NCBI GenBank assembly: GCA_038061225.1
Contig: JBBTZT010000005.1
Span: forward strand, 19,646-83,645
Origin: Patescibacteria group bacterium
Lineage (GTDB): Bacteria > Patescibacteriota > Microgenomatia > UBA8517
Length of the DNA stretch: 64,000 nucleotides
Direction of reading: 5' to 3'
Of this stretch, positions 1,303 to 64,000 are shown piece after piece. Both the position numbers and the translations under genes were made by a program. Below the pieces are notes generated by a model. The model was not told the origin of the DNA. It made no database searches and saw only the letters and a list, made by a program, of their open reading frames with translations. Positions within the stretch are counted from its first letter, which is position 1. The number at the start of each line of letters is the position of its first letter.

Positions 1303-1305
1303 ATT

Positions 1306-2649: not shown

Positions 2650-2657
2650 TTTTTGTG

Positions 2658-2843
2658 TTATTCACCTGAACCACCTGAACCTTCACAACCGCAGCTTGCT
2701 GCACAATCAGACTCACAACCACAACTTTGTGCACAATCCGCTGTACATGCTGAATCACAGTCAGAAGTTTCCATTTTGATGCTTTTTGTTTCCATCATTG
2801 GCTTAGCGTCTCTCAAATCTCTATTTTTGTTTATTAATTTCAA
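2658..2843 (-). CDS. RiPP precursor peptide, Cys/Ser-rich core (LAP/TOMM-like)
   Basis: The 74-codon ORF in the track (2658..2882) begins at a TTG. The better start is the TTG at 2843..2841, which is preceded by a strong SD (AAGGAGGTGA, 8-nt spacer). The resulting 61-aa product is MKLINKNRDLRDAKPMMETKSIKMETSDCDSACTADCAQSCGCESDCAASCGCEGSGGSGE. It has nine Cys at regular xxxC spacing with adjacent Ser/Thr. It sits immediately upstream of YcaO. Confidence 0.6.
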   Translation of the reverse strand: MKLINKNRDLRDAKPMMETKSIKMETSDCDSACTADCAQSCGCESDCAASCGCEGSGGSGE

Positions 2844-2887
2844 TTTAATCACCTCCTTAGTAAATTCGTAAGAATAATACAAGCAGA

Positions 2888-2915
2888 ACTATATCAGAAA
2901 TGATCAAATAGTCAA
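2888..2915 (-). promoter_or_regulatory. Candidate sigma70-type promoter for the precursor-YcaO-SagB operon
   Basis: On the minus strand there is TTGACT (plus 2915..2910), a 16-nt spacer and TATAGT (plus 2893..2888). This lies ~45 nt upstream of the SD and TTG start. Confidence 0.4.
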
Positions 2916-2987
2916 TAACTTATGGGGCTTATGGGTATATTTAAAATTGGCTTGTCAAGTTGTAAACAAGTTTGGCACTTTAACTCG

Positions 2988-3047
2988 TCAGAACTGACTC
3001 GTTAAATTGTAAATTGGCAGGATTATTGCAATGACTAAAAATCCAAC
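2988..3047. repeat. Direct repeat copy A: duplicate of the pilC 3' terminus (candidate attL/attR-type island boundary)
   Basis: It matches 7833..7892 over ~60 nt (30+14+8+5 identical, 3 mismatches). All 3 mismatches are synonymous in the pilC frame. The copy still encodes ...VGFLVIAIILPIYNLTSQF* preceded by a stop. Confidence 0.7.
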
Positions 3048-3066
3048 ACACTATCATGCAATTTGG

Positions 3067-11854: not shown

Positions 11855-12391
11855 CATGCGTTTTTGTTAATTAATACAAATCCAAAAGAATTTGCCACAA
11901 AACAAAAGGCAAAACAGATTCCGTTTAGATTACAAAAAATTGATGATGTTAGAGAACTTAAAAAATTTGTTAAGTTTAGCTTCGCTCTAAAAACTGCAAT
12001 TATCATTGAAGATATTGATAAAGCTACAGTAGAAACACAAAATGCTTTTCTTAAAAATTTAGAAGAACCAAACAAGAATTTGATTTATGTATTAACAGTT
12101 AGCAATTTGGAGAATGTATTACCAACAATAGTATCTCGATGCCAAGTAATTAAGATCCAAGATCTAAGATATAAGATGTATGACAAAAACGCAAACTACA
12201 AGGATGCGTTGAATATTAAAGATAGGGGAGAGGCGATTAAATTTGTTGAAAATCTAATATATATAGATCATGAAAAAAATATTTTTCAAAATCAAGAAAA
12301 TTATTTACAGTCTCTGAAAAATTTAAAAGCAAATGGTAATGTCTCGTTGCAGTTACTAAATTTAGTTGTTAAAATGAACAGCCAGAGATAA
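11855..12391 (+). CDS. holB: DNA polymerase III delta-prime-like clamp-loader subunit (short, degenerate)
   Basis: It has TQNAFLKNLEEP (like ALLKTLEEP) and TIVSRCQ (like TIxSRCQ). The start is probably the ATG at 11855 rather than 11828. Confidence 0.5.
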   Translation, partial: HAFLLINTNPKEFATKQKAKQIPFRLQKIDDVRELKKFVKFSFALKTAIIIEDIDKATVETQNAFLKNLEEPNKNLIYVLTVSNLENVLPTIVSRCQVIKIQDLRYKMYDKNANYKDALNIKDRGEAIKFVENLIYIDHEKNIFQNQENYLQSLKNLKANGNVSLQLLNLVVKMNSQR

Positions 12392-12469
12392 TTTTCAATT
12401 TTTAATTATCAATTTTCATTGAATTTTCAATGATATAATGATTAATTGTTAATTGATTGGAAATTGTAA

Positions 12470-14416
<1,947 letters not shown>

Positions 14417-24394: not shown

Positions 24395-24401
24395 AAATTT
24401 C

Positions 24402-24428
24402 TAATTGACCTAATTGACCTAATTTCTA
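24402..24428. repeat. 9-nt tandem repeat (taattgacc x2.5), intergenic
   Basis: The sequence reads taattgacc taattgacc taatttcta. Confidence 0.5.
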
Positions 24429-25115
24429 AACAAATTAAAATTAACAACAAATTTCTATAAATTATAATATTGTTTAAAAAATTGAAAATTTTAATTAATT
24501 ACATGTTATATAAAGGACATTAGAGGAATTTAAAGGTTTTAAATAACTGTAAATTTGGCCTTGAATACGACCTTCTGTAATCGATTTTAAGGCCTATCTA
24601 AATCAAAAAACGACTAGTACATCATTTAAATATATTGTCGTATTTTCGGATCAACATGGCACTTCTCTGATTTTTAAAATTTAGGGGAGTCAAATAAGTA
24701 ACTAGAAGCTAGAAACTTGATATTAGATATACGGTAATAACAACACAAAAACAGTGAGTAAAACTCTAATGCAATAACATAAAAAATAGTTATTGATTCT
24801 TAATTTTAAATTATTAATTGCTTATGTACACTACTCTCTGCATTATATTCAACGTCGTAAAAGTATTATTGTACGACATAGTATTTTAATAGACATATAC
24901 TTAGGGTGTTGGATGAACAATTTGATAGCCTAAATAAGAAGGGCTTATGTTATAAATAAATTAGTTTGTTATCAGTTAGAGAGTCTACTCCTCCAAAGGA
25001 ATGAAAAATATAGTTATCCACATATGTATCAAACTATATCATTTCGTGAAAACTCTTCCCTGCCCTGTGAAAACACACTCAATAATTATAGGGTATTTGA
25101 AGCCTTACTCCCCTT

Positions 25116-29701: not shown

Positions 29702-30412
29702 CTAGGCTAAAACTGTAAGCTGTTCAAGTGATGTACGTAAATCACTAGGTAATTCAGCCTTAAAAATTACTTTTTTCTTTGAAGTGGGGTGAATAAAACT
29801 TATACCTCCAGCGTGTAAAAACAATCTAGAACACCACTTACGATCTTTTCTAGCAGTTTTTCTGCCAGCATAAAATTCATCTGCAACTATTGGATGGCCA
29901 ATATGCTTTAAATGAATTCTTATTTGATGAGTTCTGCCAGTTTTTGGTTTTATTTCTAGCAAAGTAAGTTGCTCGTCACCATAAAGCATATAGCTTAAAA
30001 CTTTATACTCTGTGGTCGCCTCACGTCCATCTGCAAGTACCCCAAATCTATCTCTCCTCCAAGGCAGTCTTCCAACAGGTTCATTTATCTCGCCTTCTGG
30101 CGGATCAACGTTCCCATGAACTAAAGCAATATATGTTTTACTAACTAAACGTTCTTTAAATTGCCTTTGGAGCTCCTCAAATGCTATTCTAGTCTTTGCC
30201 ACAAGAAGTATCCCTGATGTTTCTTTGTCAAGCCGATGAACTATTCCATGTCTTAATTCTTGAAAATTGAAAATTGAAAATTGAAAATTCTCAGCAATCC
30301 AGTTTTCAACCACAGGTTGAATACCGGTAGTCTTTGCTGAGTTAGTTATCCAACCAGAAGGTTTCTCCAACACAAAAAATTCACTATCTTCAAATATCAT
30401 CCTTGGCGTCAT
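29702..30412 (-). CDS. RluA-family pseudouridine synthase
   Basis: It has the HRLDKETSGILLVAKT catalytic motif. Confidence 0.8.
   Translation of the reverse strand: MTPRMIFEDSEFFVLEKPSGWITNSAKTTGIQPVVENWIAENFQFSIFNFQELRHGIVHRLDKETSGILLVAKTRIAFEELQRQFKERLVSKTYIALVHGNVDPPEGEINEPVGRLPWRRDRFGVLADGREATTEYKVLSYMLYGDEQLTLLEIKPKTGRTHQIRIHLKHIGHPIVADEFYAGRKTARKDRKWCSRLFLHAGGISFIHPTSKKKVIFKAELPSDLRTSLEQLTVLA
30260..30289. repeat. 7-nt tandem repeat (tgaaaat x4) in-frame inside rluA-like gene
   Basis: There are four perfect copies at 30261..30288. They encode NFQFSIFNFQ just N-terminal of the HRLD motif. Confidence 0.7.
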
Positions 30413-37338: not shown

Positions 37339-37650
37339 ATGAAAGCAAACATACATCCAAAATGGTTTAAGACATCAAAAGTAAGCTGTGCCTGTGGTAA
37401 TACATTCATAGTGGGTGCCGTAATTCCAGAAATAAATGTTGAAGTTTGTTCTGTCTGTCATCCATTTTATACAGGTCAAATGAAATATCTTGATGCTGCG
37501 GGAAGAGTTGAAAGTTTTAAACAAAAATTATCACAAGCTTCAAAAAAGGTTATTTCAAAATCTGAAAAAAGAAAAATTAAACAAGAAAAAAGAATTAGAG
37601 AAGAAATGAGTAGACCAGATTCACTTGAACAACTTCGAAAGAATGTTTAA
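37339..37650 (+). CDS. rpmE: Ribosomal protein L31 with Lys-rich C-terminal extension
   Basis: MKANIHPKWF...CACGN...CSVCHPFYTGQ is the L31 zinc-ribbon. It is followed by a 33-aa extension. Confidence 0.8.
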   Translation: MKANIHPKWFKTSKVSCACGNTFIVGAVIPEINVEVCSVCHPFYTGQMKYLDAAGRVESFKQKLSQASKKVISKSEKRKIKQEKRIREEMSRPDSLEQLRKNV

Positions 37651-40636: not shown

Positions 40637-41590
40637 CTAAGAACCAATCTTAAATTCAATAACATCTCCGTCTTTTACAACATAATCTCTACCTTCACTT
40701 CTAACTTTTCCCAATTCTCTTGCATTTTTCCAGCCTTTATTTTTAATAAATTCATTAAAATCGCAAACATCTGCCTTAATAAATTTACCCATAAAGTCAG
40801 TATGTATCACGCCTGCCGCGTTTGACGCGGTAATTCCATTTTTAATAGTCCAAGCCCTTACCTCTTTTTCCCCTGCTGTTAAAAAGGTAATCAGTCCTAA
40901 AGTTTTAAATGCCTTTTGAATTAATTTATCTAATGCCGATTCCCTAGTGCCTAATGCCTGTAAGTATTCTTTTTGTTCTTCACCTGACAACTCAGCAAGT
41001 TCTGCTTCAACCTTGGCACAAATTGCAACAACTTGACCTTGTTCTAATCCAAGCTCTTTTGCGTACCTTTCTTCATACTGCTTACTACTTACTACATCTT
41101 GTTCATCAACATTTAGAGCAACAAGAATTGGTTTTTGAGAAAAAGGCGGTGCATCTGGATGTTCCATGTCTGCAATATCTAATTCAGTTTTAATAATTTC
41201 AAAATCATTTTTTGCTGAAGTAGCTCTTTGTTTAACTATTTCTGGATCAGAAAAACATCTTATTACATGACAAATTGCATCCACCTGCCTTATGTGGTTT
41301 AAAAATTTATTTCCTAATCCCTCGCCTTTTGAAGCTCCTTCAATTAAACCTGCAATATCAACAAACTCCACAGTTGCAGGCACAATTGGTGGAGTTACTG
41401 ATTCCAAACTGACTATAACTGATTGTAATTGATTTAACCTCTCGTCTGGCACAGGAACAACTCCAATATTTGGTTCAATTGTTGCAAAGGGGAAATTAGC
41501 AACATATGCTTGTTGCTTTTTAAGTAAAGCATTAAAAAGCGTAGATTTTCCTACATTTGGAAGCCCCACTATCCCTACAGATAATCCCAT
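40637..41590 (-). CDS. ychF: Ribosome-binding ATPase YchF/Ola1
   Basis: It has MGLSVGIVGLPNVGKSTLFNAL...NFPFATIEPN, the YchF G-domain. Confidence 0.85.
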   Translation of the reverse strand: MGLSVGIVGLPNVGKSTLFNALLKKQQAYVANFPFATIEPNIGVVPVPDERLNQLQSVIVSLESVTPPIVPATVEFVDIAGLIEGASKGEGLGNKFLNHIRQVDAICHVIRCFSDPEIVKQRATSAKNDFEIIKTELDIADMEHPDAPPFSQKPILVALNVDEQDVVSSKQYEERYAKELGLEQGQVVAICAKVEAELAELSGEEQKEYLQALGTRESALDKLIQKAFKTLGLITFLTAGEKEVRAWTIKNGITASNAAGVIHTDFMGKFIKADVCDFNEFIKNKGWKNARELGKVRSEGRDYVVKDGDVIEFKIGS

Positions 41591-42443: not shown

Positions 42444-43100
42444 TTATAATGCAAGACTAAGGGATATTAGAACCATAATTATCCCAAATCCATAACCAAC
42501 AATTGTTGGCCAAGATGCACCAGTTACAGGTATTGGAGCTGTAGTTGCGGTAGCTTGTGCTGAACTTGTCGAAGTAGGTGTCGTAGTTTTTGAAGCAGAT
42601 GTTACAGTAGCTGTGGCAGTTGGAGTTGCAGTAGCTTTTGATGTATTTGTGGCAGTTGGGCTAGCAGTTGCAGTGGCAGTAGCAGTAGCAGTAGCGGTTG
42701 GAGTGGCTGCAACACTACATAGAGTAAGATTTGTTGTCCAAGCTGCTCCAGCAGAAGGGCAACAAAATTGTTTTGCGTTTGAAGCAGTAGATCCACAAAC
42801 CTCAACTCTACCAGCAGAATTACAAAGACTGTCGTTTGGAAATTCTTCTCCAGTTGAACAATCACGAAGCAAACTAGAGTTATTTGAATCAGGACAAGCA
42901 TATCCTCCTAAGTTGCATTCTTTTGCTTTTTCAGAAATATTCTGATTCTGTCTAACTAAAATTATTCCAGCAATTACACCAAGAGCCAAAACAACAATCC
43001 CAATTATTGCACCCATTACTTTCCAATTTGTTTTATCTTTGGATTTGCTATTTGAAATACCTACAACTTTAATGTCACTATCTTTCATATCTTTAATCAT
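42444..43100 (-). CDS. Cys-rich, Thr/Ala-repeat cell-surface protein with C-terminal IPVTG + hydrophobic sorting-like tail
   Basis: It has an N-terminal signal anchor, a Cys-rich domain of 10 Cys, a (TA/TP)n low-complexity linker, and then IPVTGASWPTIVGYGFGIIMVLISLSLAL at the C-terminus. Confidence 0.5.
   Translation of the reverse strand: MIKDMKDSDIKVVGISNSKSKDKTNWKVMGAIIGIVVLALGVIAGIILVRQNQNISEKAKECNLGGYACPDSNNSSLLRDCSTGEEFPNDSLCNSAGRVEVCGSTASNAKQFCCPSAGAAWTTNLTLCSVAATPTATATATATATASPTATNTSKATATPTATATVTSASKTTTPTSTSSAQATATTAPIPVTGASWPTIVGYGFGIIMVLISLSLAL
42664..42704. repeat. Hexanucleotide (gcagta/gcagtg)n microsatellite encoding the (Thr-Ala)n linker
   Basis: The sequence reads gcagttgcagtggcagtagcagtagcagtagcggttgg. 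Confidence 0.6.
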
Positions 43101-44091: not shown

Positions 44092-45335
44092 TATTTAAGA
44101 TTTAATCCCAAAACTTCATCAAAAGAAATAGCTAAATCATATTTATCTTCGCTTGGGATATTGCTTTTTAGCATTTCAAACATCACAGCCATTGCTTTGC
44201 TTGTATTTAAATCGTCATTAATTGCTTTGTTAAACTTATTTCTATATTCGTTTACTTTTTCATTTTTTTCCCGACTTAAAGTAGTTCTGGCTGATGACTG
44301 GAGACTAATGACTAATGACTGTAGCCGTTTTAGCCCTTTAGAAGCTGATTCAAGCGCTTGCCAAGTAAAATTCATTGGTTTTTTGTAATGTGCACCAAGA
44401 TATAAATAGCGAAGAGCTATTGGGTCAACCCCTTTATTCAAAACATCTTGAATTGTATAGTAATTACCAAGTGACTTACTCATTTTAGTTCCATCAACCA
44501 TTAAAAATGCACAGTGAAGCCAAAATTTACTAAAGGGAACTTTTCCTGTTGCTCCTTCACTTTGTGCAATTTCATTTGGATGGTGAATTGAGAGATGGTC
44601 TTCCCCACCAGTATGTATATCTATTTGTTCTCCTAAATATTTTATACTCATTGCAGAGCATTCAATATGCCACCCAGGAAACCCATCACCCCATGGACTT
44701 TCCCAATGCATAACATGATCTTTAAAATTTCCTACTCTTTTAAACCAAAGTGCAAAATCTTGAGGATTTCTCTTGTTTTCGTCTGTTTTTACCTGTTCCC
44801 TAACACCTATTCGCTTTTCACTGATGTCTTGTCCAAACATTTTTCCATAATCTGCAAATTTTGATACATCAAAGTAAACTGCTTCTTCTGTATCATAGGC
44901 ATATCCATTGATGAATAGTTTATCAATCAGTTCAATTTGTTCTTTGATATGATCAGTTGCTTTACAAATTGTTGTGGGTCTAATTATATTTAATTTATCC
45001 ATTGATTCGTAAAAATTCTTAGTAAAAAAATCAGCCACTTCCCAAACGGTTTTACCTTGTTTTTTAGCTCCTTTTTCTAATTTATCTTCGCCATCATCGG
45101 CATCAGAAACTAAGTGACCAACATCAGTCACATTTTGGACATGATTAACCTTAAAATCATTATATATAAGTACTCTTTTCAAAATATCGTCTATAACATA
45201 TTTTCTGCCATGACCTATGTGTGCATAATCATAAACAGTCATTCCACAGGTATACAATCCCACTCCCGATGTGGGATTTATTGGTGTAAACAATTCTTTT
45301 TGTCTAGTTAGTGAGTTATATAAATACAAATCCAT
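44091..45335 (-). CDS. cysS: Cysteinyl-tRNA synthetase
   Basis: It has HIGH (HIGHGR) and KMSKS motifs on a class I CysRS core. Confidence 0.9.
   Translation of the reverse strand: MDLYLYNSLTRQKELFTPINPTSGVGLYTCGMTVYDYAHIGHGRKYVIDDILKRVLIYNDFKVNHVQNVTDVGHLVSDADDGEDKLEKGAKKQGKTVWEVADFFTKNFYESMDKLNIIRPTTICKATDHIKEQIELIDKLFINGYAYDTEEAVYFDVSKFADYGKMFGQDISEKRIGVREQVKTDENKRNPQDFALWFKRVGNFKDHVMHWESPWGDGFPGWHIECSAMSIKYLGEQIDIHTGGEDHLSIHHPNEIAQSEGATGKVPFSKFWLHCAFLMVDGTKMSKSLGNYYTIQDVLNKGVDPIALRYLYLGAHYKKPMNFTWQALESASKGLKRLQSLVISLQSSARTTLSREKNEKVNEYRNKFNKAINDDLNTSKAMAVMFEMLKSNIPSEDKYDLAISFDEVLGLNLK
44292..44326. repeat. Degenerate 7-nt tandem array (gactaat core x2.6) in-frame inside cysS
   Basis: Perfect copies at 44304..44321 are flanked by diverged copies. 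They encode QSLVISLQSS in a variable CysRS region. Confidence 0.55.
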
Positions 45336-45372: not shown

Positions 45373-45846
45373 CTATCCTGAAGGAGGGACTGGTTTTTCG
45401 ACACGAGTTGTTTGCTGTTGTGCAGACTGTTTTTGCCCCCCACCCATTTTACGACCCTTCTTAGCAGAGGGCATTACTAGTTGATCAGTTACGAGTTGCG
45501 AGTTACGAGTTTTGACAGCCTCAATTTGAGCTTTTAAAACATCACGTTGTTCATAACTAAGTTCTGTAAATTCTTCCAAGGGAATATTTTCCCCTGCCTG
45601 AATTCTTCTCATTAAATCGTTAAATATTTTTTGTCTTCTTATATCTTTTAGTTCTGATTCTAGCGCCTGCAGATGTCTTCCATCTTTTTCTGCTATTGCA
45701 GTTTTATCTAAATTAGACTGTTCTTGATTTATAGGCTGTTCTAGAGGTTTGGTATTTTCGGATACATTAATTTGTTTTGCAACAGATTTCAAAAATTCTA
45801 GCGGTTCTTCTCCAATTGCTTTAATTGTTTTTTTGATAGGATTCAT
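45373..45846 (-). CDS. Hypothetical protein (157 aa)
   Basis: ORF only. It overlaps the recR stop. Confidence 0.3.
   Translation of the reverse strand: MNPIKKTIKAIGEEPLEFLKSVAKQINVSENTKPLEQPINQEQSNLDKTAIAEKDGRHLQALESELKDIRRQKIFNDLMRRIQAGENIPLEEFTELSYEQRDVLKAQIEAVKTRNSQLVTDQLVMPSAKKGRKMGGGQKQSAQQQTTRVEKPVPPSG
45488..45515. repeat. 7-nt tandem repeat (agttacg/agttgcg x4) in-frame inside hypothetical gene
   Basis: The copies are agttacg agttgcg agttacg agttttg. They encode NSQLVTDQLV. Confidence 0.6.
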
Positions 45847-46469
45847 AGTTCTTTCCTTCCTTCCAATGCTTGCGTAAGAGTAGTATCATCTGCATATTCT
45901 AAATCAGCACCTGTTGGAATACCCATACCTAAGCGAGTAATTTTTAATTTTAAATTTTTATCACGAAGTGTAGTCATCATTTTCAATTGTTTAACAAGGT
46001 ACATACTAGTTGCTTCACCTTCCATTGTAGGATTTGTAGCAATTATTATTTCTTGGATCTTAGATCCTACATCTTGGATCCGTTCAAGCAAAGCTTGAAC
46101 AAATATCTCGTCAGGTCCAATATTTTCCAAGGGGTTAATAGCACCATGCAGTACATGGTATAGACCTTTGTATCTTCCGCTTCTTTCAAATGCAATTAAA
46201 TCAAGTGGATTTTCAACAACCAAACAAGTTTTTTTATCACGATTATGATCAGAGCAAATGGAACATGGATCCGTTTCAGCCACATTTTTACAAATAGAAC
46301 AAAGAACAGTATCTTTTTTAAGGCGTGATAAGTTCTCACTAAATTCATCAAGTTCTTTCTGTGGAACATGAAGAAGATAGTATGCCAATCGTTGCGCAGA
46401 TTTTGGGCCGATTCCAGGAAGTTTTTCAAAGGACTCTGTTAAAGAAGAAATTGCTTTGGCAATTTTCAT
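45843..46469 (-). CDS. recR: Recombination protein RecR
   Basis: It has HhH (LPGIGPKSAQRLAYYL), a C4 zinc finger and a Toprim domain. Confidence 0.9.
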   Translation of the reverse strand: MKIAKAISSLTESFEKLPGIGPKSAQRLAYYLLHVPQKELDEFSENLSRLKKDTVLCSICKNVAETDPCSICSDHNRDKKTCLVVENPLDLIAFERSGRYKGLYHVLHGAINPLENIGPDEIFVQALLERIQDVGSKIQEIIIATNPTMEGEATSMYLVKQLKMMTTLRDKNLKLKITRLGMGIPTGADLEYADDTTLTQALEGRKEL

Positions 46470-55209: not shown

Positions 55210-55291
55210 TTGTAAATTATACTAACTCATTCCAAACTTCAAGAGGAAAATTATATTTAATTTTACTTGTTATCACGAAATGTCAATAGAT

Positions 55292-55651
55292 TTACCTATT
55301 ATCCCCACTGCCATGAAGAGCATTTCTTTCTTTTCTTGAAGATAATTTTTCAATATTCATAGAAACTACGTCAGAAAATTTTAAATTAAGTTCTGTTGAA
55401 AGTTGGGCAACATACCACAAAACATCTCCCAATTCCTTTCCTATTTCCAGTCTTTTTTCATTAGTTAATTTTCCACCATCGTCACGAAAAAGTTTTTTTA
55501 TTTTTTCTGAAACCTCGCCCACCTCACCCTGCAAACCAATTAGCGGATATACAAAACTTTTACCAATTTTTGGATAAACTGCAGTCTTTTTACAAAACTT
55601 TTGATACTCATCAAAATCTTTGAAATTTTTATTTTTTGAAAATACCGACAT
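55292..55651 (-). CDS. MazG-like nucleotide pyrophosphohydrolase
   Basis: It has the EVGEVSE ... ELGDVLWYVAQL EExxE/D motifs. Confidence 0.7.
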   Translation of the reverse strand: MSVFSKNKNFKDFDEYQKFCKKTAVYPKIGKSFVYPLIGLQGEVGEVSEKIKKLFRDDGGKLTNEKRLEIGKELGDVLWYVAQLSTELNLKFSDVVSMNIEKLSSRKERNALHGSGDNR

Positions 55652-55744
55652 CTTGGAGTCAATTTAACAAGTAAATACTTTGAAGTCAACTACTCATAAT
55701 GAATTTTTAAATACAAAATAGTTATTGTTAAAAACAAGCTTTGC

Positions 55745-55996
55745 TTATTCTTTTTCGATTAAAATCTTTGTCATCGGTGAAAATTTACAATTCTTTGTAA
55801 CTTCATCTGGTACAGCTAACGCACGTGTATATTTATCACCCTTTTTGTATTCTGCGATTGCATCTGCTTCACTCATTTCATATTTTTCCTGAAGCGCTTC
55901 TATAACATGTTTATACATATCTATGGCAAAAGGTTTTGAAGCACAGTCACATTCTTTTGTTGGATCGATTGCACAAATTACTGTATCAGCTGACAT
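55745..55996 (-). CDS. Hypothetical protein (83 aa)
   Basis: ORF only. Confidence 0.25.
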   Translation of the reverse strand: MSADTVICAIDPTKECDCASKPFAIDMYKHVIEALQEKYEMSEADAIAEYKKGDKYTRALAVPDEVTKNCKFSPMTKILIEKE

Positions 55997-56016
55997 AATT
56001 TGCGATTATACACTAC

Positions 56017-57966
56017 TCATTCTTTCTTTGGCAACTTCCAAGTAGCATGTTTACAATTAGGATAGTTACTACAACCAAAAAACTTTTTGCCCTTTTTTGA
56101 TCTTTTTACAATTAATTCTCCGATCTGACATTCTGGACATTTAAATCCAGTTTTTTCTAAATATTTTTCTGTATATTTACATTCAGGAAAAGTAGAACAA
56201 CTTATAAATTTTCCGAATCTTCCAACTCTAACTACTAGTTCTCCGGCAGAGCAATCCGGGCATTTTTTGCCCAATTTTTCAGTTTCAATTTTTACACGTT
56301 CTGAAGTTTTTTCGACATTATCTAATTTTTTTGAAAATGGTATCCAGAATTTTTTCATTTCTTCTTGCCATTTTATTTTTCCAAGTGCAATTCTATCTAA
56401 ATCTTCTTCCATTTCTGCGGTAAAACTATATTCAAGTTCATCTGGAAAATTCTTTACTAAAAACTCAGTTACTGCAAAACCAATCGAGGTTGGAAAAAAG
56501 TTTTTTTCTTTTTTTTCTACATAACTTCTTAATTGTATTGTTGAAATGATTGGTGCATATGTTGAAGGCCTACCAATCCCCAATTTTTCTAAAGTTTTAA
56601 TTAGAGATGCTTCATTATATCTTGCTGGGGCTAAGGTAAACTTTTGATCTGCCCAAATCTCGATCTTTTCTAAATTTTCACCCTTAATCACTTCAGGTAA
56701 AATTATTACTTCTTTATCTACATTAAATAATTTTCTCCAGCCATCAAATTTCATAACCTGACCGCTGGCGCGCAGGATGTAGGATGTAGGATGTAGGATG
56801 GCTGAAACATCAATTGTAGTTTCAGAATATGCAGCTTGAGCCATTTGACAAGCTAAAAATCTTCTTCTAATTAAATCATATAGCTTTTCTTCCCCATATT
56901 CACCGTTTACAAATGATGATTTACGATTCACATCCGTTACACGTATTGCTTCGTGTGCTTCTTGAGCCGACTTACTTTTTGTTTTGTAAGAAATTGGTTT
57001 TCCTGGTAAATAATCTTTTCCAAATTCTTTTTCTATAAAAGTCCTCGCGATTTTCACTGCGTCAACAGATAAATTTAGAGAGTCCGTACGATGATATGTA
57101 ATCAAACCTTCTTCATATAACTTTTGTGCAGCTGACATAGTTTTTTTTGCACTCCATCCAAATATTCTGGCAGCTGTCTGAGTCATTGTAGAAGTAGTAA
57201 ATGGCGGGTATGGATTTTTTCTAACTACTCTTTTTTTAACATCTGAAACCTGATATTTGGCTTTCTGGAGTTCTTCTAAAATTTTGTCAGCTTGCTCTTT
57301 TGTCTTAACTATTTGTTTGATTAGTTGTATTGTGAATGAATTATTATTTTTTAATTCTTCATTCTTAACTGTAGCGTATATTTCCCAATATTCTTCAGAT
57401 TTAAATGCTTTAATTTCATTTTCTTTCTCAACAATCAATCGAACTGCAACAGACTGAACACGTCCTGCAGAAAGTCCCCTTCTTACTTTTTTCCAAAGAA
57501 GAGGTGATAATTTATAGCCCACAAGCCTATCAAGTACTCTTCTTGCAATTTGTGCATCCACGAGGTTTCTATTTATAACAGTTGGATTGTTTAATGCATG
57601 CTCCACAGCTTGTTTAGTTATTTCGTGAAATGTAGCTCTCTTCAATTTTAAATTTTTAATTTTAAATTTTAAATTTGCAAAGATGTCTTCGACATGCTTT
57701 GCTATGGCTTCTCCTTCTCTATCAGGATCTGTTGCAATATAAATTTCATTAGCATTTTTAGCCTTTTTTTGTAATTTACTAATTACATCTTTTTTCTTTT
57801 CAAGTAGTAAATAATCTGGCATAAAATTATTTTCTATATCTATACTTAATTTACTTTTAGGTAAATCTTTAATGTGACCTTTTGTTGAATCCACATCATA
57901 ACCACTTCCTAAAAATTTAGAAAGCGTCTTAGCTTTTGTCGGTGACTCAACAATAATTAATTTCAT
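56017..57966 (-). CDS. topA: DNA topoisomerase I
   Basis: It has a TOPRIM domain, an active-site Tyr region and C-terminal C4 zinc ribbons (CPDCSAGEL..., CPECQIGEL...). Confidence 0.9.
   Translation of the reverse strand: MKLIIVESPTKAKTLSKFLGSGYDVDSTKGHIKDLPKSKLSIDIENNFMPDYLLLEKKKDVISKLQKKAKNANEIYIATDPDREGEAIAKHVEDIFANLKFKIKNLKLKRATFHEITKQAVEHALNNPTVINRNLVDAQIARRVLDRLVGYKLSPLLWKKVRRGLSAGRVQSVAVRLIVEKENEIKAFKSEEYWEIYATVKNEELKNNNSFTIQLIKQIVKTKEQADKILEELQKAKYQVSDVKKRVVRKNPYPPFTTSTMTQTAARIFGWSAKKTMSAAQKLYEEGLITYHRTDSLNLSVDAVKIARTFIEKEFGKDYLPGKPISYKTKSKSAQEAHEAIRVTDVNRKSSFVNGEYGEEKLYDLIRRRFLACQMAQAAYSETTIDVSAILHPTSYILRASGQVMKFDGWRKLFNVDKEVIILPEVIKGENLEKIEIWADQKFTLAPARYNEASLIKTLEKLGIGRPSTYAPIISTIQLRSYVEKKEKNFFPTSIGFAVTEFLVKNFPDELEYSFTAEMEEDLDRIALGKIKWQEEMKKFWIPFSKKLDNVEKTSERVKIETEKLGKKCPDCSAGELVVRVGRFGKFISCSTFPECKYTEKYLEKTGFKCPECQIGELIVKRSKKGKKFFGCSNYPNCKHATWKLPKKE
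56774..56801. repeat. 7-nt tandem repeat (aggatgt x4) in-frame inside topA
   Basis: There are three perfect copies plus aggatgg. They encode ILHPTSYIL. Confidence 0.7.
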
Positions 57967-58526
57967 CTAACGTTTAAATACTCTAATATATCTTGTGGTG
58001 AATTAGCAATACTCGCTCCATTTTCTATTAAATAATCAGTAGCCTCGCTACCCGGTATAGCATAAACATCTTTTCCTTCATTTGCCGCATGATTTGCGGT
58101 GGAAATTGTACCAGACCTCCTCTTTCCTTCAACCACCAAAACTGCAAGAGATAATTTAACTATTAACTGATTTCTAGCAAGAAAGTTAGCTCCTATCGGT
58201 TTTGTTCCATTTGGAAAACCTGAAACTAAAGCCCCATTTTTTGATATTTCTTCTGCTAACTTTTTATTTTCAGCTGGATATATAATGTCAATTCCAGATC
58301 CTAAAACTGCAATTGTGCGGCCGTGATATTTAAGTGTGGTTTGATGAGCTATTGTATCTATTCCCCTAGCAAGACCTGAAACAATTGTTATGTTGTTTTC
58401 AACTAGTACTTTTACAAATTCTTCCGTTAATTTTTTACCCCTTTCAGACATTTCCCTTGACCCAACAACAGCAACAGCTCTTTTATCAATATCTTTTAGC
58501 TCTCCTAAAATAAAAAGGTCATTCAT
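57963..58526 (-). CDS. dprA: DNA processing protein DprA (Rossmann core only)
   Basis: It has GSREMSERGKKLTEEF...SGLARGIDTIAHQ...RNQLIVKLSLAVLVVE. The start is probably MNDLFILGE. Confidence 0.75.
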   Translation of the reverse strand: MNDLFILGELKDIDKRAVAVVGSREMSERGKKLTEEFVKVLVENNITIVSGLARGIDTIAHQTTLKYHGRTIAVLGSGIDIIYPAENKKLAEEISKNGALVSGFPNGTKPIGANFLARNQLIVKLSLAVLVVEGKRRSGTISTANHAANEGKDVYAIPGSEATDYLIENGASIANSPQDILEYLNVR

Positions 58527-60033
58527 TTTTGTTTCCTTCAAAATAATAATTAAAAATATTTCTTGCAATTGGCCCTGCTATTTTTGAACCTTCTCCAGAT
58601 TTTTCAATCATTACAGTTAGTGCAATTTCTGGATTTTCAATCGGTGCAAAAGCAGTAAACCATGCATGAGTTTTATTATCTTCATTTGTTTCTGCGGTTC
58701 CTGTCTTACAGCCTATTTCAATACCATTATGTTTCTCACTAAAGTCAAAAAAAGTAAATCCTGTTCCACCCGTCTGACCTGCCTGCGCAGGCAGGCATAC
58801 TTTTTTCATCCCTTCTTTTACTAAATTAATATTTTCCATCTTTATTTTTGTTTTTTGACAATTTGTTTCACCCACAATTTTAAGATCACAAAATTTACCA
58901 CTATTTGCAATAACAAGGTTTGCTCTATGAATTCCAATAGGGGTTAGGGCAAGATCTCCTTGCCCTATTGAAAAATGATATGTATTACCTAAAAACCATT
59001 TCTCTTTTTTTGTTTTTTCTTTCCAATCGGGAGATGGAATAAGAGAAATAATTTCTCCAGGAATATCAATATCTGTTAATTTAGTTAAGCCAAAATTTTT
59101 CATCCAATCAACAAGTTTGTCAATGCCCACAGCCTCTCCAATCTTGTAGAAAAAAGTGTCTGTCGAACGCGCTATTGCTTTTGTTAAATCAATTTCTCCT
59201 TCTTTTCCACCATATTGGGTAAAATACCAATTTGTATATGAAAAATTACCATACATCGATTTAACGGTTACAACCCCAGTATCTATGTATCTATAATTTT
59301 TATCTATTTTCCCCTCTTCTAAAGCTGCAATAGCGATTAATGGTTTAAATATTGATCCTGGATGATACAAACCACCGATACTCCTGTTAAAAAGTGGAAG
59401 TTCTGGATCATTCAAACTTTTGGGGATATTATCTGGATCAAAAGATGGTGATGAAAAAAGAGCTAATACTCCACCATTTTTGTCTGTTGCAATAACTGAT
59501 CCACTTTTCCCAGCCATCTCTGTTGCAATAGTATTTTGTAAATTAAAATCAATATTTGTTCTAAGGTCACTACCCGAAATTGGATATTTTATGCCTAAAC
59601 TTCTTAGGTTTCTTCCCTGACTATCAACTTCTATTAATTCTTCCCCGTCAACACCTGTCAAATAACAATTATAATATTCAGAAAGTCCTCCACGACCTAC
59701 AATTTGCCCTAGTTTATAAACACCTTTTTCGATACATTTTGGATTAATTTTGCCGACCTCCTCGGCGTTGGTCTCAGCTAAATAACCAACTAGATGAGAA
59801 AAATTAACCCCATTCAAAACTTCACCACCACGAGCTAAAATTTTTCCTCGTTCTGCTTTAATCTTTATTCTTTCTATCCTATTTCCTTCCGATAATTTTC
59901 TGTAATATTCTCCTTTGATCAATTGAAGATCTATAAGCCTTGCTATCAAAACCAAAAAACCAAATAATAAAACTCCTCTTAAAAACCACGAAAACCATGA
60001 TTGCTGTCTATTAAATGTTGCCAACGTCTGCAT
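58519..60033 (-). CDS. Penicillin-binding protein 2 (class B transpeptidase)
   Basis: It has the SxxK (GSIFKP) and KTGTA motifs and an N-terminal TM. Confidence 0.85.
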   Translation of the reverse strand: MQTLATFNRQQSWFSWFLRGVLLFGFLVLIARLIDLQLIKGEYYRKLSEGNRIERIKIKAERGKILARGGEVLNGVNFSHLVGYLAETNAEEVGKINPKCIEKGVYKLGQIVGRGGLSEYYNCYLTGVDGEELIEVDSQGRNLRSLGIKYPISGSDLRTNIDFNLQNTIATEMAGKSGSVIATDKNGGVLALFSSPSFDPDNIPKSLNDPELPLFNRSIGGLYHPGSIFKPLIAIAALEEGKIDKNYRYIDTGVVTVKSMYGNFSYTNWYFTQYGGKEGEIDLTKAIARSTDTFFYKIGEAVGIDKLVDWMKNFGLTKLTDIDIPGEIISLIPSPDWKEKTKKEKWFLGNTYHFSIGQGDLALTPIGIHRANLVIANSGKFCDLKIVGETNCQKTKIKMENINLVKEGMKKVCLPAQAGQTGGTGFTFFDFSEKHNGIEIGCKTGTAETNEDNKTHAWFTAFAPIENPEIALTVMIEKSGEGSKIAGPIARNIFNYYFEGNKNE

Positions 60034-60042
60034 AACTATATA

Positions 60043-61116
60043 TTACAACATCCCTTTTGTAATTCTGATTTTGTTTAAAAGTGATAAATCGTCAAGTAAT
60101 TTTCCACAACCTCTAACTACACAAGTTAATGGATCTTCAGCAATATAAACTGGCATTTTAGTAGCATCTGCCACTGCTTTTTCTATTCCATGTATCATTG
60201 CACCACCACCTGCTAAATAAATTCCTTTTTTCATAATATCTGAGACAAGTTCTGGTGGAGTTTCTTCTAAAGTATCAGAAATACCTGTAATAATTTCATG
60301 TATTATTGGTCCTAAAGCCTCTCTTATTTCTCCATCAGTTAATTTAATAGACCTAGGAAGTCCATTTTCAAGATCTCTTCCACGAATTACAAAACTTTTT
60401 GGTTTGTCGTAATTTACTGCTGATCCAATAGCAATTTTTACAGCTTCTGCTGATGATTGACCCAGAAGAAGTGAATATTTTAATTTTACATAATTTATTA
60501 TGGCTTCATCCATTTCATCCCCAGCAATACGCAATGACCTACCTATTACAATTCCACCCAATGAAATTACAGCAATTTCTGAAGTTCCCCCACCAATATC
60601 TACTATAAAGTTACCCTCAGGATGGGAAACATCGAGCCCGGCTCCGATCGCGGCAGCCATTGGTTCTTCAATTAAATCTACTCTTCTTGCACCCGCGTCT
60701 AACGCGGCATCAGCCACAGCTCTTCTTTCAACTTCAGTAACACCTGATGGAATACCGACAATTACATGTGGTCTTGGAATACGTGGCATATTTCCACCAG
60801 TTTCATGAACTTTTTTAATATAGTGAGTTAATATTGAAGAAGCTGCATCAAAATCAGCAATAACTCCATCTCTAAGTGGTCTTATTACTTCAATTGTAGA
60901 AGGAGCTCTTCCAATCATTTTTTTAGCTGGAGCACCAATTGCCAATATCTCTTTTGTTTTTTTATTTCTAGCAACAGCAGAGGGTTCTCTAATTGCAACG
61001 CCTTTGCCTTTTATGTAAACAAGTGTATTTGAAGTTCCAAGATCAATCCCTAGATCAGTCGAAAAAAAACCAAGGATTAAATTAACCGGATTTGCTATAC
61101 TTTTAAATATCATCAT
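60043..61116 (-). CDS. mreB: Rod-shape determining protein MreB
   Basis: It is an actin-fold MreB with DLGTSNTLVYIKGKG. The start is probably MMIFKS, because the track's N-terminal 27 codons overlap the divergent gene. Confidence 0.85.
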   Translation of the reverse strand: MMIFKSIANPVNLILGFFSTDLGIDLGTSNTLVYIKGKGVAIREPSAVARNKKTKEILAIGAPAKKMIGRAPSTIEVIRPLRDGVIADFDAASSILTHYIKKVHETGGNMPRIPRPHVIVGIPSGVTEVERRAVADAALDAGARRVDLIEEPMAAAIGAGLDVSHPEGNFIVDIGGGTSEIAVISLGGIVIGRSLRIAGDEMDEAIINYVKLKYSLLLGQSSAEAVKIAIGSAVNYDKPKSFVIRGRDLENGLPRSIKLTDGEIREALGPIIHEIITGISDTLEETPPELVSDIMKKGIYLAGGGAMIHGIEKAVADATKMPVYIAEDPLTCVVRGCGKLLDDLSLLNKIRITKGML

Positions 61117-63052
61117 GATTCCAGTACTTTTTAACATATTATTTTTAATCTTACCACTTACCTTTTTCAAAACCACATCAGAACTCTTTGAATTCAATAA
61201 AGTTATAGTTCTTTATCTTTTTACAAGTTTGATTGTATCAGGATGGCTTATTGAGTCAATCAAACAAAGAAAATTTATATTTCGTCCCACTAAATTAGAT
61301 GTTCCCTTAGTCATCTATTTATCCATTTATTTGATCAGTACTTTATTTTCAATAGACCCTAGAACTTCGTGGCTTGGCTATTATTCCAGATTTAACGGCG
61401 GACTAATAACTCAAGTCTGCTATGTATTTCTTTACTGGGCTTTTGTCAGTAACCTCGACAAAAAGCAATCACTAAGTACTTTGTACTATGTACTGTCATC
61501 TACTGCAATAGCATCGTTATTAGCAGTTTTAGAGCATTTCGGTTTCTTTGCAACTTGTGGGATGATGAATTTTGGCTGGCGTGAATCATGCTGGGTACAA
61601 GATGTTCAAACAAGAGTTTTTAGTACATTAGGCCAGCCCAACTGGCTCGCCGCTTTACTAGTTGCACTAATACCATTTACTTGGAGAAAGTCATACAAGT
61701 ATTATTTATTGTCAATTTTGTTTTTTGTAACCTTATTATTTACAAAGTCTCGATCAGGATTATTAGCCTTTGGAATTGAAGCAATTATTTTTTGGGGATT
61801 TGTTTTTTGGCAAAGTAGATTTAAGTTTATAAAAGAATTTTTGATTTTATTTTTAAGTTCTATTATTTTATTTTTTGCTTTTAGTTCACCATTCACTAAT
61901 CACCAGTCGCCAACCGCTACTTCTGAGGGCCCTGCTCTTGAATCCGGCGGGACAGAAAGCAGTACTATCCGTAAATTCGTTTGGCTTGGAGCATTAGAGG
62001 TATTTAGACATTATCCAATTTTAGGAACTGGTCCTGAAACTTTTGCCTTTTCGTATCCAATGTTTAAACCAGTAGGACATAACTTAACTTCAGAATGGGA
62101 TTTTATATACAACAAGGCACATAATGAGTTTCTTAATATCTTGGCTAATGTCGGTTTACTTGGTTTCTTGTCATATATATCTATAATTATTTTTTCATTT
62201 TTGCAAATTACTAATTATTCTAAGTGCACTAATTTCAAAAATTATTTAGGTCAATTAGGTAAATTAGGTCAATTAGAAATTGGATTGCTTTCTGGTTATA
62301 TAGCAATTCTTGTTACAAACTTCTTTGGTTTTTCAATTGTTCCAGTTTCACTTCTTTTCTTTTTATTACCAGCAATTGCATTAGTAAGTAATAGTGATTA
62401 CAAAATTCATTTAAATAAAACGAGATTAAAAACATTTGAAAAACTTGCAATTCTTGGAGTTTTGCTTACTACATACTACATACTACATACTACATACAAT
62501 TATTGGAAAGCAGATATCAATTACAATATTGCTAGAAACTTAAACAGGTCAAATAAACCTGAGGAAGCAATAATAGAAATAAATAAAGCATTGCTAACTT
62601 CAGCAAATGAATCTATATATTTGTATGAATTGGCTTTAGCAGATACTAAAGTTGAAACTGCAAATAAAGCACTAAAATTAACCCCCTATAATCAAAATGT
62701 TAGAAAAATGCTAATTAATAATTTAGTTAAAAATGCAGACACAGATCCTAATAATTTAAAACTTGCCGAAAATGTTATTAAAGATGGCATTAAGTTGTCC
62801 CCTAATGACCCAAAACTTTATTATCAACAGGCAATATTACAATTAAAAATTGCAAAGAATAATGAGGCAGTCGCTAATTTACAAAAAACAATTGAATTAA
62901 AACCAAATTATAAAGAAGGAAGATATGCACTGGGGATGATATATAAATCTTTAAATAAAATTGAAGAGGCAAAAAAAGAATTTAAATATATCTTAAAAAA
63001 TATCGATCCAAATGATGAACTAACCCAAAAAAATCTAGAAGAATTAATGTAG
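61115..63052 (+). CDS. Polytopic membrane protein with O-antigen-ligase-like (Wzy_C) domain and C-terminal TPR repeats
   Basis: It has ~12 TM segments with a KSRSGLLAFG loop region, then TPR repeats (YYQQAILQL...NYKEGRYALGMIYKSL). The start is uncertain. Confidence 0.5.
   Translation: MIPVLFNILFLILPLTFFKTTSELFEFNKVIVLYLFTSLIVSGWLIESIKQRKFIFRPTKLDVPLVIYLSIYLISTLFSIDPRTSWLGYYSRFNGGLITQVCYVFLYWAFVSNLDKKQSLSTLYYVLSSTAIASLLAVLEHFGFFATCGMMNFGWRESCWVQDVQTRVFSTLGQPNWLAALLVALIPFTWRKSYKYYLLSILFFVTLLFTKSRSGLLAFGIEAIIFWGFVFWQSRFKFIKEFLILFLSSIILFFAFSSPFTNHQSPTATSEGPALESGGTESSTIRKFVWLGALEVFRHYPILGTGPETFAFSYPMFKPVGHNLTSEWDFIYNKAHNEFLNILANVGLLGFLSYISIIIFSFLQITNYSKCTNFKNYLGQLGKLGQLEIGLLSGYIAILVTNFFGFSIVPVSLLFFLLPAIALVSNSDYKIHLNKTRLKTFEKLAILGVLLTTYYILHTTYNYWKADINYNIARNLNRSNKPEEAIIEINKALLTSANESIYLYELALADTKVETANKALKLTPYNQNVRKMLINNLVKNADTDPNNLKLAENVIKDGIKLSPNDPKLYYQQAILQLKIAKNNEAVANLQKTIELKPNYKEGRYALGMIYKSLNKIEEAKKEFKYILKNIDPNDELTQKNLEELM
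62246..62281. repeat. 9-nt tandem repeat (ttaggtcaa x4, 1-3 mismatches) in-frame inside membrane protein gene
   Basis: It encodes LGQLGKLGQLEI. Confidence 0.6.
62467..62501. repeat. 7-nt tandem repeat (tactaca x4 perfect + 1 degenerate) in-frame inside membrane protein gene
   Basis: It encodes TTYYILHTTYN. Confidence 0.7.
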
Positions 63053-63077: not shown

Positions 63078-63614
63078 ATGGTACAAAAAATAATTCAGTC
63101 TGGTGATCCAATATTAAGACGTGTTAGTAAACCAATTAAGTCAATAGATCGTAAAATCATAAGATTAATTCAAGATTTAAAAGATACTTTATCTGTTCAA
63201 AAAGATCCTGAAGGTGTTGGTCTAGCCGCACCACAAATTGGAAAAAATTTAAGGGTGTTTGCTGTGAACTTCAAAAATTTTAAGCGTATTGTAATTAATC
63301 CAGAAATAATTGAGGCAAAAGATTCAAGATCTAAGATCAAAGATCAAAGATCTACAAAATCGGAGATTTTGGAGGGTTGTCTTTCACTTCCCCATTACTA
63401 TGGTCCATTAAAAAGAGAGGGTTTAATAAAAATAAAATATTTAGATGAAAATGGAAAAGAAATAATAGAAGAATTTAAAGATTTTGATGCCCAAATAATA
63501 TTGCACGAAATTGATCATCTAAATGGATTTTTATTTATAGATAGATTATTAGAACAAAAAAAGAAACTTTATAAACTTGATGAAAAAGATGAGTGGGAGG
63601 AGGTGGAGATATAG
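63078..63614 (+). CDS. def: Peptide deformylase
   Basis: It has GVGLAAPQIG, EGCLSLP and HEIDHLNG motifs. Confidence 0.85.
   Translation: MVQKIIQSGDPILRRVSKPIKSIDRKIIRLIQDLKDTLSVQKDPEGVGLAAPQIGKNLRVFAVNFKNFKRIVINPEIIEAKDSRSKIKDQRSTKSEILEGCLSLPHYYGPLKREGLIKIKYLDENGKEIIEEFKDFDAQIILHEIDHLNGFLFIDRLLEQKKKLYKLDEKDEWEEVEI
63326..63353. repeat. 7-nt tandem repeat (aagatct/aagatca x4) in-frame inside def
   Basis: It encodes SKIKDQRS within an insertion relative to typical Def. Confidence 0.65.
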
Positions 63615-63658: not shown

Positions 63659-64000
63659 ATGGAAAACAAAAAATTTGATCTTGAAGAAAGAACTGCTAAA
63701 TTTGGTGAATCAGTTATTGAATTTTGTTTAAAAATTCCAAAAAATGAGATTACTAGACCATTAATAACCCAGCTAGTTAAGGCTTCAACAAGTGTTGGTG
63801 CAAATTATTGCGAAGCAGATGATGCGGAAAGTGGTAAAGATTTTAAACACAAAATAGGCATTTGTAAAAAAGAAGCTCGTGAATCCAAACATTTCTTAAG
63901 AATGTTTGTTAAAACAAATCCAGAATTAATTGAAATTATTAGAAATTTATGGCAAGAAGCAAAAGAACTACACTTAATTTTCAATACAATTTATAAAAAA
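63659..64000 (+). CDS. Four-helix-bundle protein (23S rRNA intervening-sequence-protein family), 3' partial
   Basis: It has ...SVGANYCEADDAESGKDFKHKIGICKKEARESKHFLRM, the TIGR02436-type signature. It runs off the window end. Confidence 0.6.
   Translation, partial: MENKKFDLEERTAKFGESVIEFCLKIPKNEITRPLITQLVKASTSVGANYCEADDAESGKDFKHKIGICKKEARESKHFLRMFVKTNPELIEIIRNLWQEAKELHLIFNTIYKK

Follow-up and report, generated by a model that had tools for sequence, protein, structure and literature searches.

A 64,000-nucleotide (nt) stretch from a Patescibacteria group bacterium (contig JBBTZT010000005.1, positions 19,646 to 83,645; the whole stretch is referred to below as the window) carries tandem arrays of seven-nucleotide units inside conserved genes, among them topA, where a perfect array occupies positions 56774..56800 on the minus strand. 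This raises the question of what generates repeats of a unit that is not a multiple of the codon, and of how essential genes come to contain them in frame. The analysis reported here indicates that the arrays are probably heptanucleotide simple-sequence repeats (SSRs), made and homogenised by out-of-register strand realignment, and that translation filters those that fall within genes. Judging from the relatives of its TopA, the host belongs to Candidatus Woesebacteria (Microgenomates group, candidate phyla radiation); it comes from Hainich groundwater, whose assemblies contain the identical TopA and a 100% identical stretch of 18 kb, and its GC content is ~32%.

Arrays were called with Tandem Repeats Finder (TRF), using cut-offs of at least three copies and a score of at least 30, and the null expectation was taken from 100 dinucleotide-preserving shuffles of the window. 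Gene identities were assigned using NCBIfam and Pfam. For comparison, 80 topA-centred loci of other genomes, covering 1.39 Mb in total, were searched with TRF as well.

TRF returned 20 rows at period 7 in the window, 15 of which have at least three copies. The shuffled sequences, in contrast to these 15 arrays, gave a mean of 0.40 and a maximum of 3, and at a score of at least 40 the window retained ten arrays and the shuffles none. Other unit lengths are far less represented, with three arrays at period 5, three at period 6 and none at period 8; period 9 is also raised (5 in the window vs 0.22 in shuffles). The excess over shuffled controls that the initial annotation had anticipated is thus real within the 64 kb window, and all eight arrays it had listed were found at, or a few bases off, the positions it gave, that in cysS being weak. 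At least nine period-7 arrays had been overlooked (12151, 12390, 12456, 24790, 37564, 40930, 45938, 46051, 57644, 61471). Twelve of the 15 arrays lie inside open reading frames (ORFs) and three are intergenic, so that ~80% are genic and in frame. The genic arrays are found in topA (two), rluA, ychF, recR (two), def, a Wzy_C/TPR gene (two), a holB-like gene, rpmE and a hypothetical gene, and every host ORF is intact, in line with the earlier description of arrays inside intact conserved genes. The short cysS array (2.6 perfect copies) falls outside this set. Array lengths range from 18 to 35 nt and are not uniformly divisible by three, contrary to the proposal that only arrays of such total length survive; what counts is the net change, three added units amounting to 21 nt.

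How translation acts on these arrays can be read from their units. The coding fraction of the window is ~91%, and since the genome is ~90% coding, most arrays land in genes. Per base, however, arrays are denser in non-coding than in coding DNA, by a factor of 2.4 in the window and 5.7 in the related set. Over 21 nt, a unit of 7 nt passes through all three frames, with the result that each stop codon among its seven cyclic triplets comes into frame once per three units. Such a cyclic stop on the coding strand is present in 27% of the consensus units of coding arrays (n = 74) vs 47% of random coding 7-mers. Cyclic-stop units are absent from all 16 perfect coding arrays, and among the stop-containing arrays 16 of 20 carry a mismatch exactly at the would-be stop. 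In the second topA array, at 57644, the sole mismatch sits at the very base at which the consensus letter would produce an in-frame TAA. The lengths of perfect runs peak at 20 and 27 nt, and for coding arrays, at least, substitutions that avoid stops at intervals of 21 nt account for the 20-nt peak. A unit structure of six conserved positions and one variable position was considered and rejected, as mismatches are not significantly confined to a single phase (0.52 vs 0.46; 26 of 48 arrays). The depletion of stop-containing units and the placement of mismatches at stop sites bear out the earlier suggestion that selection filters the arrays: translation retains those that keep the frame, lack an in-frame stop and lie in tolerant loops or segments.

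The same kind of repeat is spread widely but patchily. Across the topA loci, period-7 density varies from 0 to 6.4 arrays per 10 kb. Some Woesebacteria loci (L078, L015, L002, L025) and Curtissbacteria, Blackburnbacteria and Moranbacteria loci are rich in arrays, a planctomycete locus of 63% GC contains them too, and Saccharibacteria, Dojkabacteria and Gracilibacteria loci have none or almost none, as is the case for several other Woesebacteria loci, which have none. This patchiness fits a lineage-level mutational trait. Period specificity holds throughout the 1.39 Mb, in which there are 25 perfect runs of at least three units at period 7 as compared with 4, 2, 0 and 0 at periods 5, 6, 8 and 9, respectively.

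Copy number is likewise constrained. TRF copy numbers concentrate at 3.3-5.0, and the mode is four both in coding arrays (25 with three copies, 38 with four, 9 with five) and in non-coding arrays (11, 13 and 3, respectively). If one unit is already present, its increase to four adds 21 nt and the frame is kept. To follow a single unit through other genomes, metagenome contigs were scanned with the pattern (GTTCACN)3GTTCAC, the unit being known from relative L084; the counts below exclude contig ends. At least 120 contigs of environmental bacteria (L086-L205), with GC contents of 26-69%, matched. Among the matches listed, exactly four cores were present in 87 of 127 arrays, five in 8, six in 8 and seven in 6, and ~40% of the four-core arrays lay within a 600-nt open frame vs 55% of random positions. 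As four-core arrays are not enriched in open frames, the four-unit mode is not merely a reading-frame effect. Neither GTTCACN nor AT-rich units can form a G-quadruplex, which is therefore no general cause of the preference. The contigs bearing GTTCACN contain 107 further heptamer arrays of diverse units in 0.6 Mb; arrays as long as 15-33 units also occur.

Comparison with orthologues shows where and how the arrays came to differ. The array at 56774..56800, at a position in TopA referred to here as site D, reads (CATCCTA)x3.9 on the coding strand (= AGGATGT) without mismatch and encodes ILHPTSYIL just before the conserved LRASGQ. The window and a sister population (L081) are identical here, reading VSAILHPTSYILRASGQ, and the nearest species-level relatives (L026, L001) lack the array, reading VSTDKYLLRASGQ. 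Other lineages carry different units at the same site, namely CATACTA (L017), CATTCTA (L025) and GTTCACA (L084), or degenerate arrays (L015, L002). The loop is short in most of the 120 closest TopA sequences. The window loop exceeds that of E. coli TopA by 4 residues. Gains quantised at seven residues were considered for site D and rejected, net gains running from +4 to +9 residues.

The other topA array, at 57644..57676 on the minus strand (site A), reads (AAATTTA)x4.7 on the coding strand with the single mismatch mentioned above and encodes NLKFKIKNLKLK; its loop is 5 residues longer than in a solved TopA homologue. At this site the window is exactly 21 nt (7 residues) longer than L081/P0002. 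The difference sits in a patch of ~200 nt with ~30% divergence between identical flanks, however, so a clean, dated event of +21 nt was discarded in favour of a recombined allele rather than a recent insertion. Over positions 55291-60043, the window and L081 (wells H41, H52) share long identical stretches interrupted by sharp patches of 15-30% divergence at ~56000-56400, 57500-57700, 57900-58000 and from 60000 onward, which indicate that these two Hainich populations frequently undergo homologous recombination with diverged alleles. Between mazG and the gene for thymidylate kinase, L081 also carries another block of genes (PIN, Thy1).

Outside topA, changes in length are equally heterogeneous. 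The array of the rluA-family pseudouridine synthase gene (30260..30289, minus strand; coding strand (AATTTTC)x4.3, perfect, encoding NFQFSIFNFQ) lies just upstream of the GIVHRLD motif and adds ~4 residues relative to a distant solved homologue. The degenerate cysS array (44289..44323, minus strand), the weakest of those initially listed, consists of a perfect 18-nt core, (GACTAAT)x2.6 at 44303-44320, with degenerate units on both sides, and involves no length gain relative to a solved CysRS. In the Wzy_C/TPR membrane protein gene, the perfect array (TACTACA)x4.4 at 62467..62497 on the plus strand, encoding LTTYYILHTTY, brings no change in length either: L026, L084 and L023 have a same-length segment of (GTACTAT)4, which has decayed at synonymous positions in L023 and is absent in L007. 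The lineage-specific units of the window, L026, L084 and L023 are 90-100% periodic, and the window array runs ~9 nt beyond that of its relatives. A second array of this gene (61471..61494, plus strand; (ACTATGT)x3.4, 82% matches) corresponds to (CATACTA)x3.1 at the orthologous site in L026. The gene also holds a 9-nt array, (TTAGGTCAA)x3.4 at 62246..62276 on the plus strand, which encodes LGQLGKLGQL and is one unit (3 residues) longer than in L002; the region is missing in L026. Finally, the array of def, the peptide deformylase gene (63318..63352, plus strand; (AAAGATC)x5.0, 85% matches, encoding KDSRSKIKDQRS), occupies a loop of about equal length in all Woesebacteria relatives, 9-10 residues longer than in the solved Def of T. 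maritima; the loop is built of AAAGATC in the window and of GTTCACN units in L084.

Net gains relative to close relatives thus range from 0 to +7 residues. The figure of ~9-12 residues per array given by the initial annotation does not hold: Wzy 62467 and cysS gain nothing, topA site D and rluA ~4 residues and the 57644 array exactly 7, only the Def loop reaching 9-10, and that against a distant homologue. Its expectation that orthologue alignment would reveal lineage-specific insertions proved correct for some arrays, while others are constant-length replacements and others again are old. The active repeat-generating process that it proposed is upheld by the recurrence of arrays of different units in the same tolerant loops of different lineages, at topA site D and in the Def loop. 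As arrays can be old and yet nearly perfect, their units must have been homogenised.

These observations are best explained, we think, by out-of-register strand realignment as the process that makes and homogenises the arrays, and we consider this reading probable. During replication or gap repair, a DNA end would realign out of register by 7 nt or multiples thereof. Such realignment, in multi-unit events, would build short arrays of about four units, and later realignment or shifted conversion would keep the units alike, sometimes overwriting neighbouring sequence at unchanged length. Translation then acts as a sieve, the survivors being those that keep the frame (1 to 4 units, +21 nt, 7 residues), contain no in-frame stop and fall in tolerant loops.

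Several points weigh against realignment as a sufficient account. Simple slippage explains neither the preference for 7 over 6 or 8 nt nor the halt at about four units. Stepwise growth of a unique heptamer from one to four units in an essential gene passes through frameshifted intermediates, so that a multi-unit event must be assumed. Where the unit contains a cyclic stop, 21 nt of perfect in-frame repeat cannot have existed at any time, and the array must stem from error-containing events or from gradual homogenisation. There is no net length change at Wzy and cysS, and topA site D, with its +4 to +9 residues, displays no clean gain of seven. The sole 21-nt difference lies in a recombined patch and is allelic rather than a dated de novo event. 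The heptamer-rich genomes described earlier, as they are presented in PMC4679880 and PMC4692102, are mostly large, high-GC and non-pathogenic, with mostly intergenic arrays, the opposite of the situation here. Lastly, units recur within the genome above expectation, which purely local slippage does not predict.

This last point is the main reason why a second explanation stays alive, namely that a genome-specific, sequence-targeted process favours a few heptamers, in the manner of the STRR families of heterocystous cyanobacteria, of GGGNATC in Xanthomonas and Nostoc or of TAACTGA in Beggiatoaceae, and that a factor recognising or templating the unit inserts such arrays at numerous positions, essential-protein loops among them. 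This could rest on a nicking or restriction-modification activity that sets off reiterative synthesis, on a protein binding the unit, or on ectopic conversion between arrays. We regard such a process as possible, though doubtful. The units of the window do cluster, 15 pairs lying within one mismatch of each other vs 4.7 expected (P = 0.002), and 6 vs 1.8 (P = 0.02) under a null restricted to stop-free units on the coding strand. AAGATCN, for instance, is shared by the arrays of recR, def and the holB-like gene, in each case on the coding strand. The initial annotation had stated that every unit set differs in sequence, which is true only in part, as AAGATCN (three arrays), AATTTTN (four), CATNCTA (three) and CTAATGN (two) recur. 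Between genomes, unit similarity is 9%, as compared with 14% within genomes (P = 0.008). Recurrence is clearest in L084 (36% GC), in which GTTCACN arrays are found in three loops of TopA as well as in that of Def; at the corresponding loops the window uses AAATTTA, CATCCTA and AAAGATC. L079 likewise carries three [G/T]CCAAAN arrays in topA. A targeted process would also suit the apparent overwriting of loops at about constant length and the sharp four-unit preference of GTTCACN, a unit unable to form a G-quadruplex.

Against such targeting, unit diversity is high (~90 distinct units in 129 arrays), and the within-genome excess is modest and could result from base composition together with the requirement for stop-free, tolerated peptides. 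At topA site D, moreover, the units agree with the conserved Y-I/L-L codons nearby, which is what local slippage would lead one to expect. The window offers no candidate enzyme or template: a search of its 64 kb for a causal gene using NCBIfam and Pfam yielded only ordinary housekeeping genes (holB-like, gyrB, gyrA, dnaB, dnaX, recR, xerC, topA, dprA). These comparisons cover 14-64 kb per genome. In its strongest form, this explanation holds that the arrays stem not from passive slippage but from a dedicated process, specific to the genome, which works in a fixed quantum of about four units (27-31 nt), writes preferred heptamers into many sites and is frame-neutral because the step from one to four units equals 21 nt; that it could repeatedly rewrite surface loops (TopA, Def, RecR, Wzy) in candidate phyla radiation bacteria; and that it also lies behind the four-unit arrays of Xanthomonas, Nostoc and many uncultured bacteria. 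We consider this form unlikely.

It had also been suggested that the arrays are hypermutable sites of length variation, that is, contingency or phase-variable loci at which rapid copy-number change would alter the length of the host proteins. SSRs are well known as hotspots of slippage, the 57644 array differs by three units between sister populations, and in a TopA cluster at 90% identity one member carries a point change (S388Y) within the array. Three consensus assemblies, two of the same population (L082, L083) and one of a sister population (L081), nevertheless make this reading improbable. L082 (Hainich groundwater, well H41) is 100% identical to the window over 18 kb without any indel, L083 (Hainich groundwater) is 99.97% identical over 13 kb without gaps, neither differing in copy number at shared arrays, and the 56774 array is identical in L081. 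The members of the TopA cluster are all equal in length, and several arrays persist at orthologous sites between species. The hosts are housekeeping genes (topA, def, cysS, recR, rluA, ychF) rather than surface or virulence genes, and a change by a single unit would be a lethal frameshift. Nor is there on/off switching by frameshift or promoter spacing, the hallmark of contingency loci: the arrays keep the frame of housekeeping genes that are intact. As far as consensus assemblies show, they are stable in the population and are not fast-switching contingency loci.

Selection at the protein level, by which the peptides would be kept for their function as flexible hydrophilic loops or Tyr-rich membrane segments and the DNA period would be a by-product, is highly improbable. 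VLCTM[YF]YVL peptides are indeed conserved in L026, L084 and L023, and loop arrays encode sequences rich in K, D, Q, R and S. Protein function cannot, however, create or maintain a 7-nt DNA period through synonymous sites, and the units at one loop differ by lineage. The occurrence of the same arrays in non-coding DNA, at higher density, and the perfect periodicity at synonymous positions largely refute this explanation. Chance, base composition or assembly artefact, for which one could cite the AT-rich, low-complexity genome and the weakness of some listed arrays (24790, 37564, 40930, the cysS core), is already refuted by the count of 15 arrays vs 0.4 in shuffles, by an excess confined, apart from the raised period 9, to period 7, by the identity of arrays across independent assemblies and by the recurrence of the phenomenon in many independent metagenome-assembled genomes.

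The window holds several further arrays. In the holB-like gene (DNA polymerase III delta-prime), (TAAGATC)x3.9 at 12151..12177 on the plus strand has 85% matches, and one of its two mismatches avoids an in-frame stop. The recR gene holds two arrays on the minus strand: one at 46051..46080 in a variable RecR loop, reading GATCCAA/GATCTAA x4.3 on the coding strand (73% matches; AAGATCN family), and one at 45938..45960, (TAATTTT)x3.3 with 87% matches, in which a mismatch avoids a stop. A hypothetical protein gene (45373-45846), whose product has no family match in NCBIfam or Pfam, carries (AGTTACG)x3.6 at 45487..45511 on the minus strand (88% matches). The ychF array (40930..40959, minus strand; (CTAATGC)x4.3, 69% matches) is old or degenerate, and that in the C-terminal tail of ribosomal protein L31 (rpmE; 37564..37594, plus strand; (GAAAAAA)x4.4, 75% matches) is of low complexity.

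Among the intergenic arrays, (AATTTTC)x4.1 at 12390..12418 lies between the holB-like gene and gyrB, and (ATTGGAA/ATTGTAA)x4.4 at 12456..12486 upstream of gyrB. The 102-nt spacer that separates these two genes (12392-12493) consists mostly of these two adjoining arrays, and the sign of the GC skew flips near 12 kb, coinciding with the switch in gene orientation. The third array, (TTATTAA)x4.3 at 24790..24819, is weak (73% matches). A perfect intergenic 9-nt array, (CTAATTGAC)x2.7, adjoins xerC at 24401..24424. In addition, a 6-nt array, (TAGCAG)x5.7 at 42662-42695, lies in an ORF on the minus strand (42444-43100) and encodes the Thr-Ala repeat TATATATATA in a protein without a Pfam match.

The topA genes of related bacteria contain inserts of other kinds. 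In the zinc-ribbon part of topA in L081 (~4360-4390), a GC-rich palindromic in-frame insert of 27 nt, CAAAGCTTGGCCGGCGATGCCGGTAAA, encodes QSLAGDAGK. It is found at the same site in L001 and is absent from the topA of the window (site ~56124), and peptides almost identical to QSLAGDAGK occur at other TopA loops, at site A in P0118 and at site D in P0079. From its sequence, this insert looks like a small dispersed in-frame element distinct from the heptamer arrays. Peptides of the type TVHxSPxTVH were also considered as a palindromic element and rejected, as they are GTTCACN heptamer arrays. At site D, a further insert is present in L013 (~11100-11140), L022, P0005, P0077 and P0081, with peptides like THTSEVKDVHTSEV; it is a direct repeat of ~24 nt containing the palindrome CCTCGGAGG. 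Insertions of several kinds are tolerated at this loop.

Elsewhere in the window (526-4404), genes for a YcaO cyclodehydratase (1306-2649) and a DIT1/PvcA-like protein (3067-4404) are found close together, along with unannotated ORFs; going by gene content, they may form a small cluster of the peptide-modification or isonitrile type, an unusual feature, if so, in a candidate phyla radiation genome. A 23S rRNA intervening-sequence protein is encoded at the window end (63659-64000 and beyond; L082:1134-4308), and in L082 a LAGLIDADG homing-endonuclease-like gene follows a few kb past that end.

The repeat class to which these arrays belong is already known. According to the summary in PMC4679880, Mrázek, Guo and Shah (2007) reported heptanucleotides as the most abundant long-SSR unit and slippage over the ~7 nt bound by the polymerase was proposed. 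Like the long SSRs with units of 5-11 nt described there and in PMC4692102, the present arrays are head-to-tail tandem iterations (as seen by TRF and in perfect runs), are more numerous and longer than composition predicts in the shuffle test, are dominated by heptamers both in the window and in the related set, and show diverse units and a scattered phylogeny. Unlike the long SSRs as portrayed in these two sources, which mostly occupy large, high-GC, free-living genomes with non-triplet units mainly intergenic, they are found in a small-genome lineage of 32% GC, ~80% in intact genes. The large, high-GC, free-living or opportunistic host is a tendency of the class and not a strict criterion. 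As for the placement of non-triplet units, 12 of the 15 arrays are genic by count, and per base the arrays are 2.4-5.7 times denser in non-coding DNA.

With the GGGNATC/GGGGAYT arrays of Xanthomonas and Nostoc (PMC4692102) and the cyanobacterial STRR heptamers, the arrays share a 7-nt unit, genome-wide dispersal and under-representation in coding DNA. The G-rich heptamers of Xanthomonas and Nostoc show a clear four-unit preference, attributed to G-quadruplex formation (Rehm et al. 2015, PMC4692102). The same preference is seen here, whereas the window units are AT-rich and without G-runs. In those families, moreover, one or a few dominant units account for about a hundred or more arrays (PMC4692102); here there are many AT-rich units, with four still the mode. 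As regards the genome-specific families STRR, GGGNATC and TAACTGA, unit families exist in the present set, yet its 129 arrays comprise ~90 units, with 64 kb of the host genome covered. The TAACTGA repeats of marine Beggiatoaceae (MacGregor 2015, PMC4679880) are also heptamers, in two to six copies and patchy across phyla, but they consist of a single unit, almost always intergenic near start codons, with a proposed regulatory role.

Like the amino-acid tandem repeats of Borgs (Schoelmerich et al. 2023, PMC9879509), the arrays arise independently in ORFs that remain unbroken, add peptide segments and show a genome-specific tendency. Borg ORF units, in contrast, are always multiples of three, perfect and fast-evolving in populations, and the unit length itself keeps the frame; here the unit is 7 nt, the arrays are stable, and it is the copy number (+3 units) or constant-length replacement that preserves the frame. 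Units divisible by three are confined to the 6-nt array at 42662 and the two 9-nt arrays. Phase-variable contingency loci of host-adapted pathogens, such as the heptanucleotide repeats at the hmw genes of Haemophilus influenzae (PMC8262952), are again short tandem repeats, sometimes heptamers, that slippage alters, but these lie in surface or virulence loci, whose expression they switch by a change in copy number, whereas the present arrays keep the frame of essential genes and do not vary among the compared assemblies. Elements of the Rickettsia palindromic type are a dispersed inverted-repeat family inserted in frame; the arrays are direct repeats of diverse units, though the 27-nt palindromic insert of the relatives may belong to that type. 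A literature search for 7-nt repeats in candidate phyla radiation genomes found nothing specific.

New with respect to the known class are the type of host, the fact that in-frame coding arrays predominate, the signature of stop avoidance, the repeated and lasting presence of arrays in the same loops, and the four-unit mode without G-quadruplexes. Heptamer enrichment extends to small, AT-rich candidate phyla radiation genomes, and its action mostly inside essential genes amounts to a clean natural experiment in the filtering of a non-triplet repeat by translation. Given the four-unit preference of both AT-rich units and GTTCACN, selection for G-quadruplexes cannot be its general cause. The homogeneous persistence of arrays at orthologous sites, together with the recurrence of units within genomes, hints at something beyond random local slippage. 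For candidate phyla radiation genomes, the resulting lineage-specific differences of 4-10 residues in the loops of conserved marker proteins affect alignment and phylogeny.

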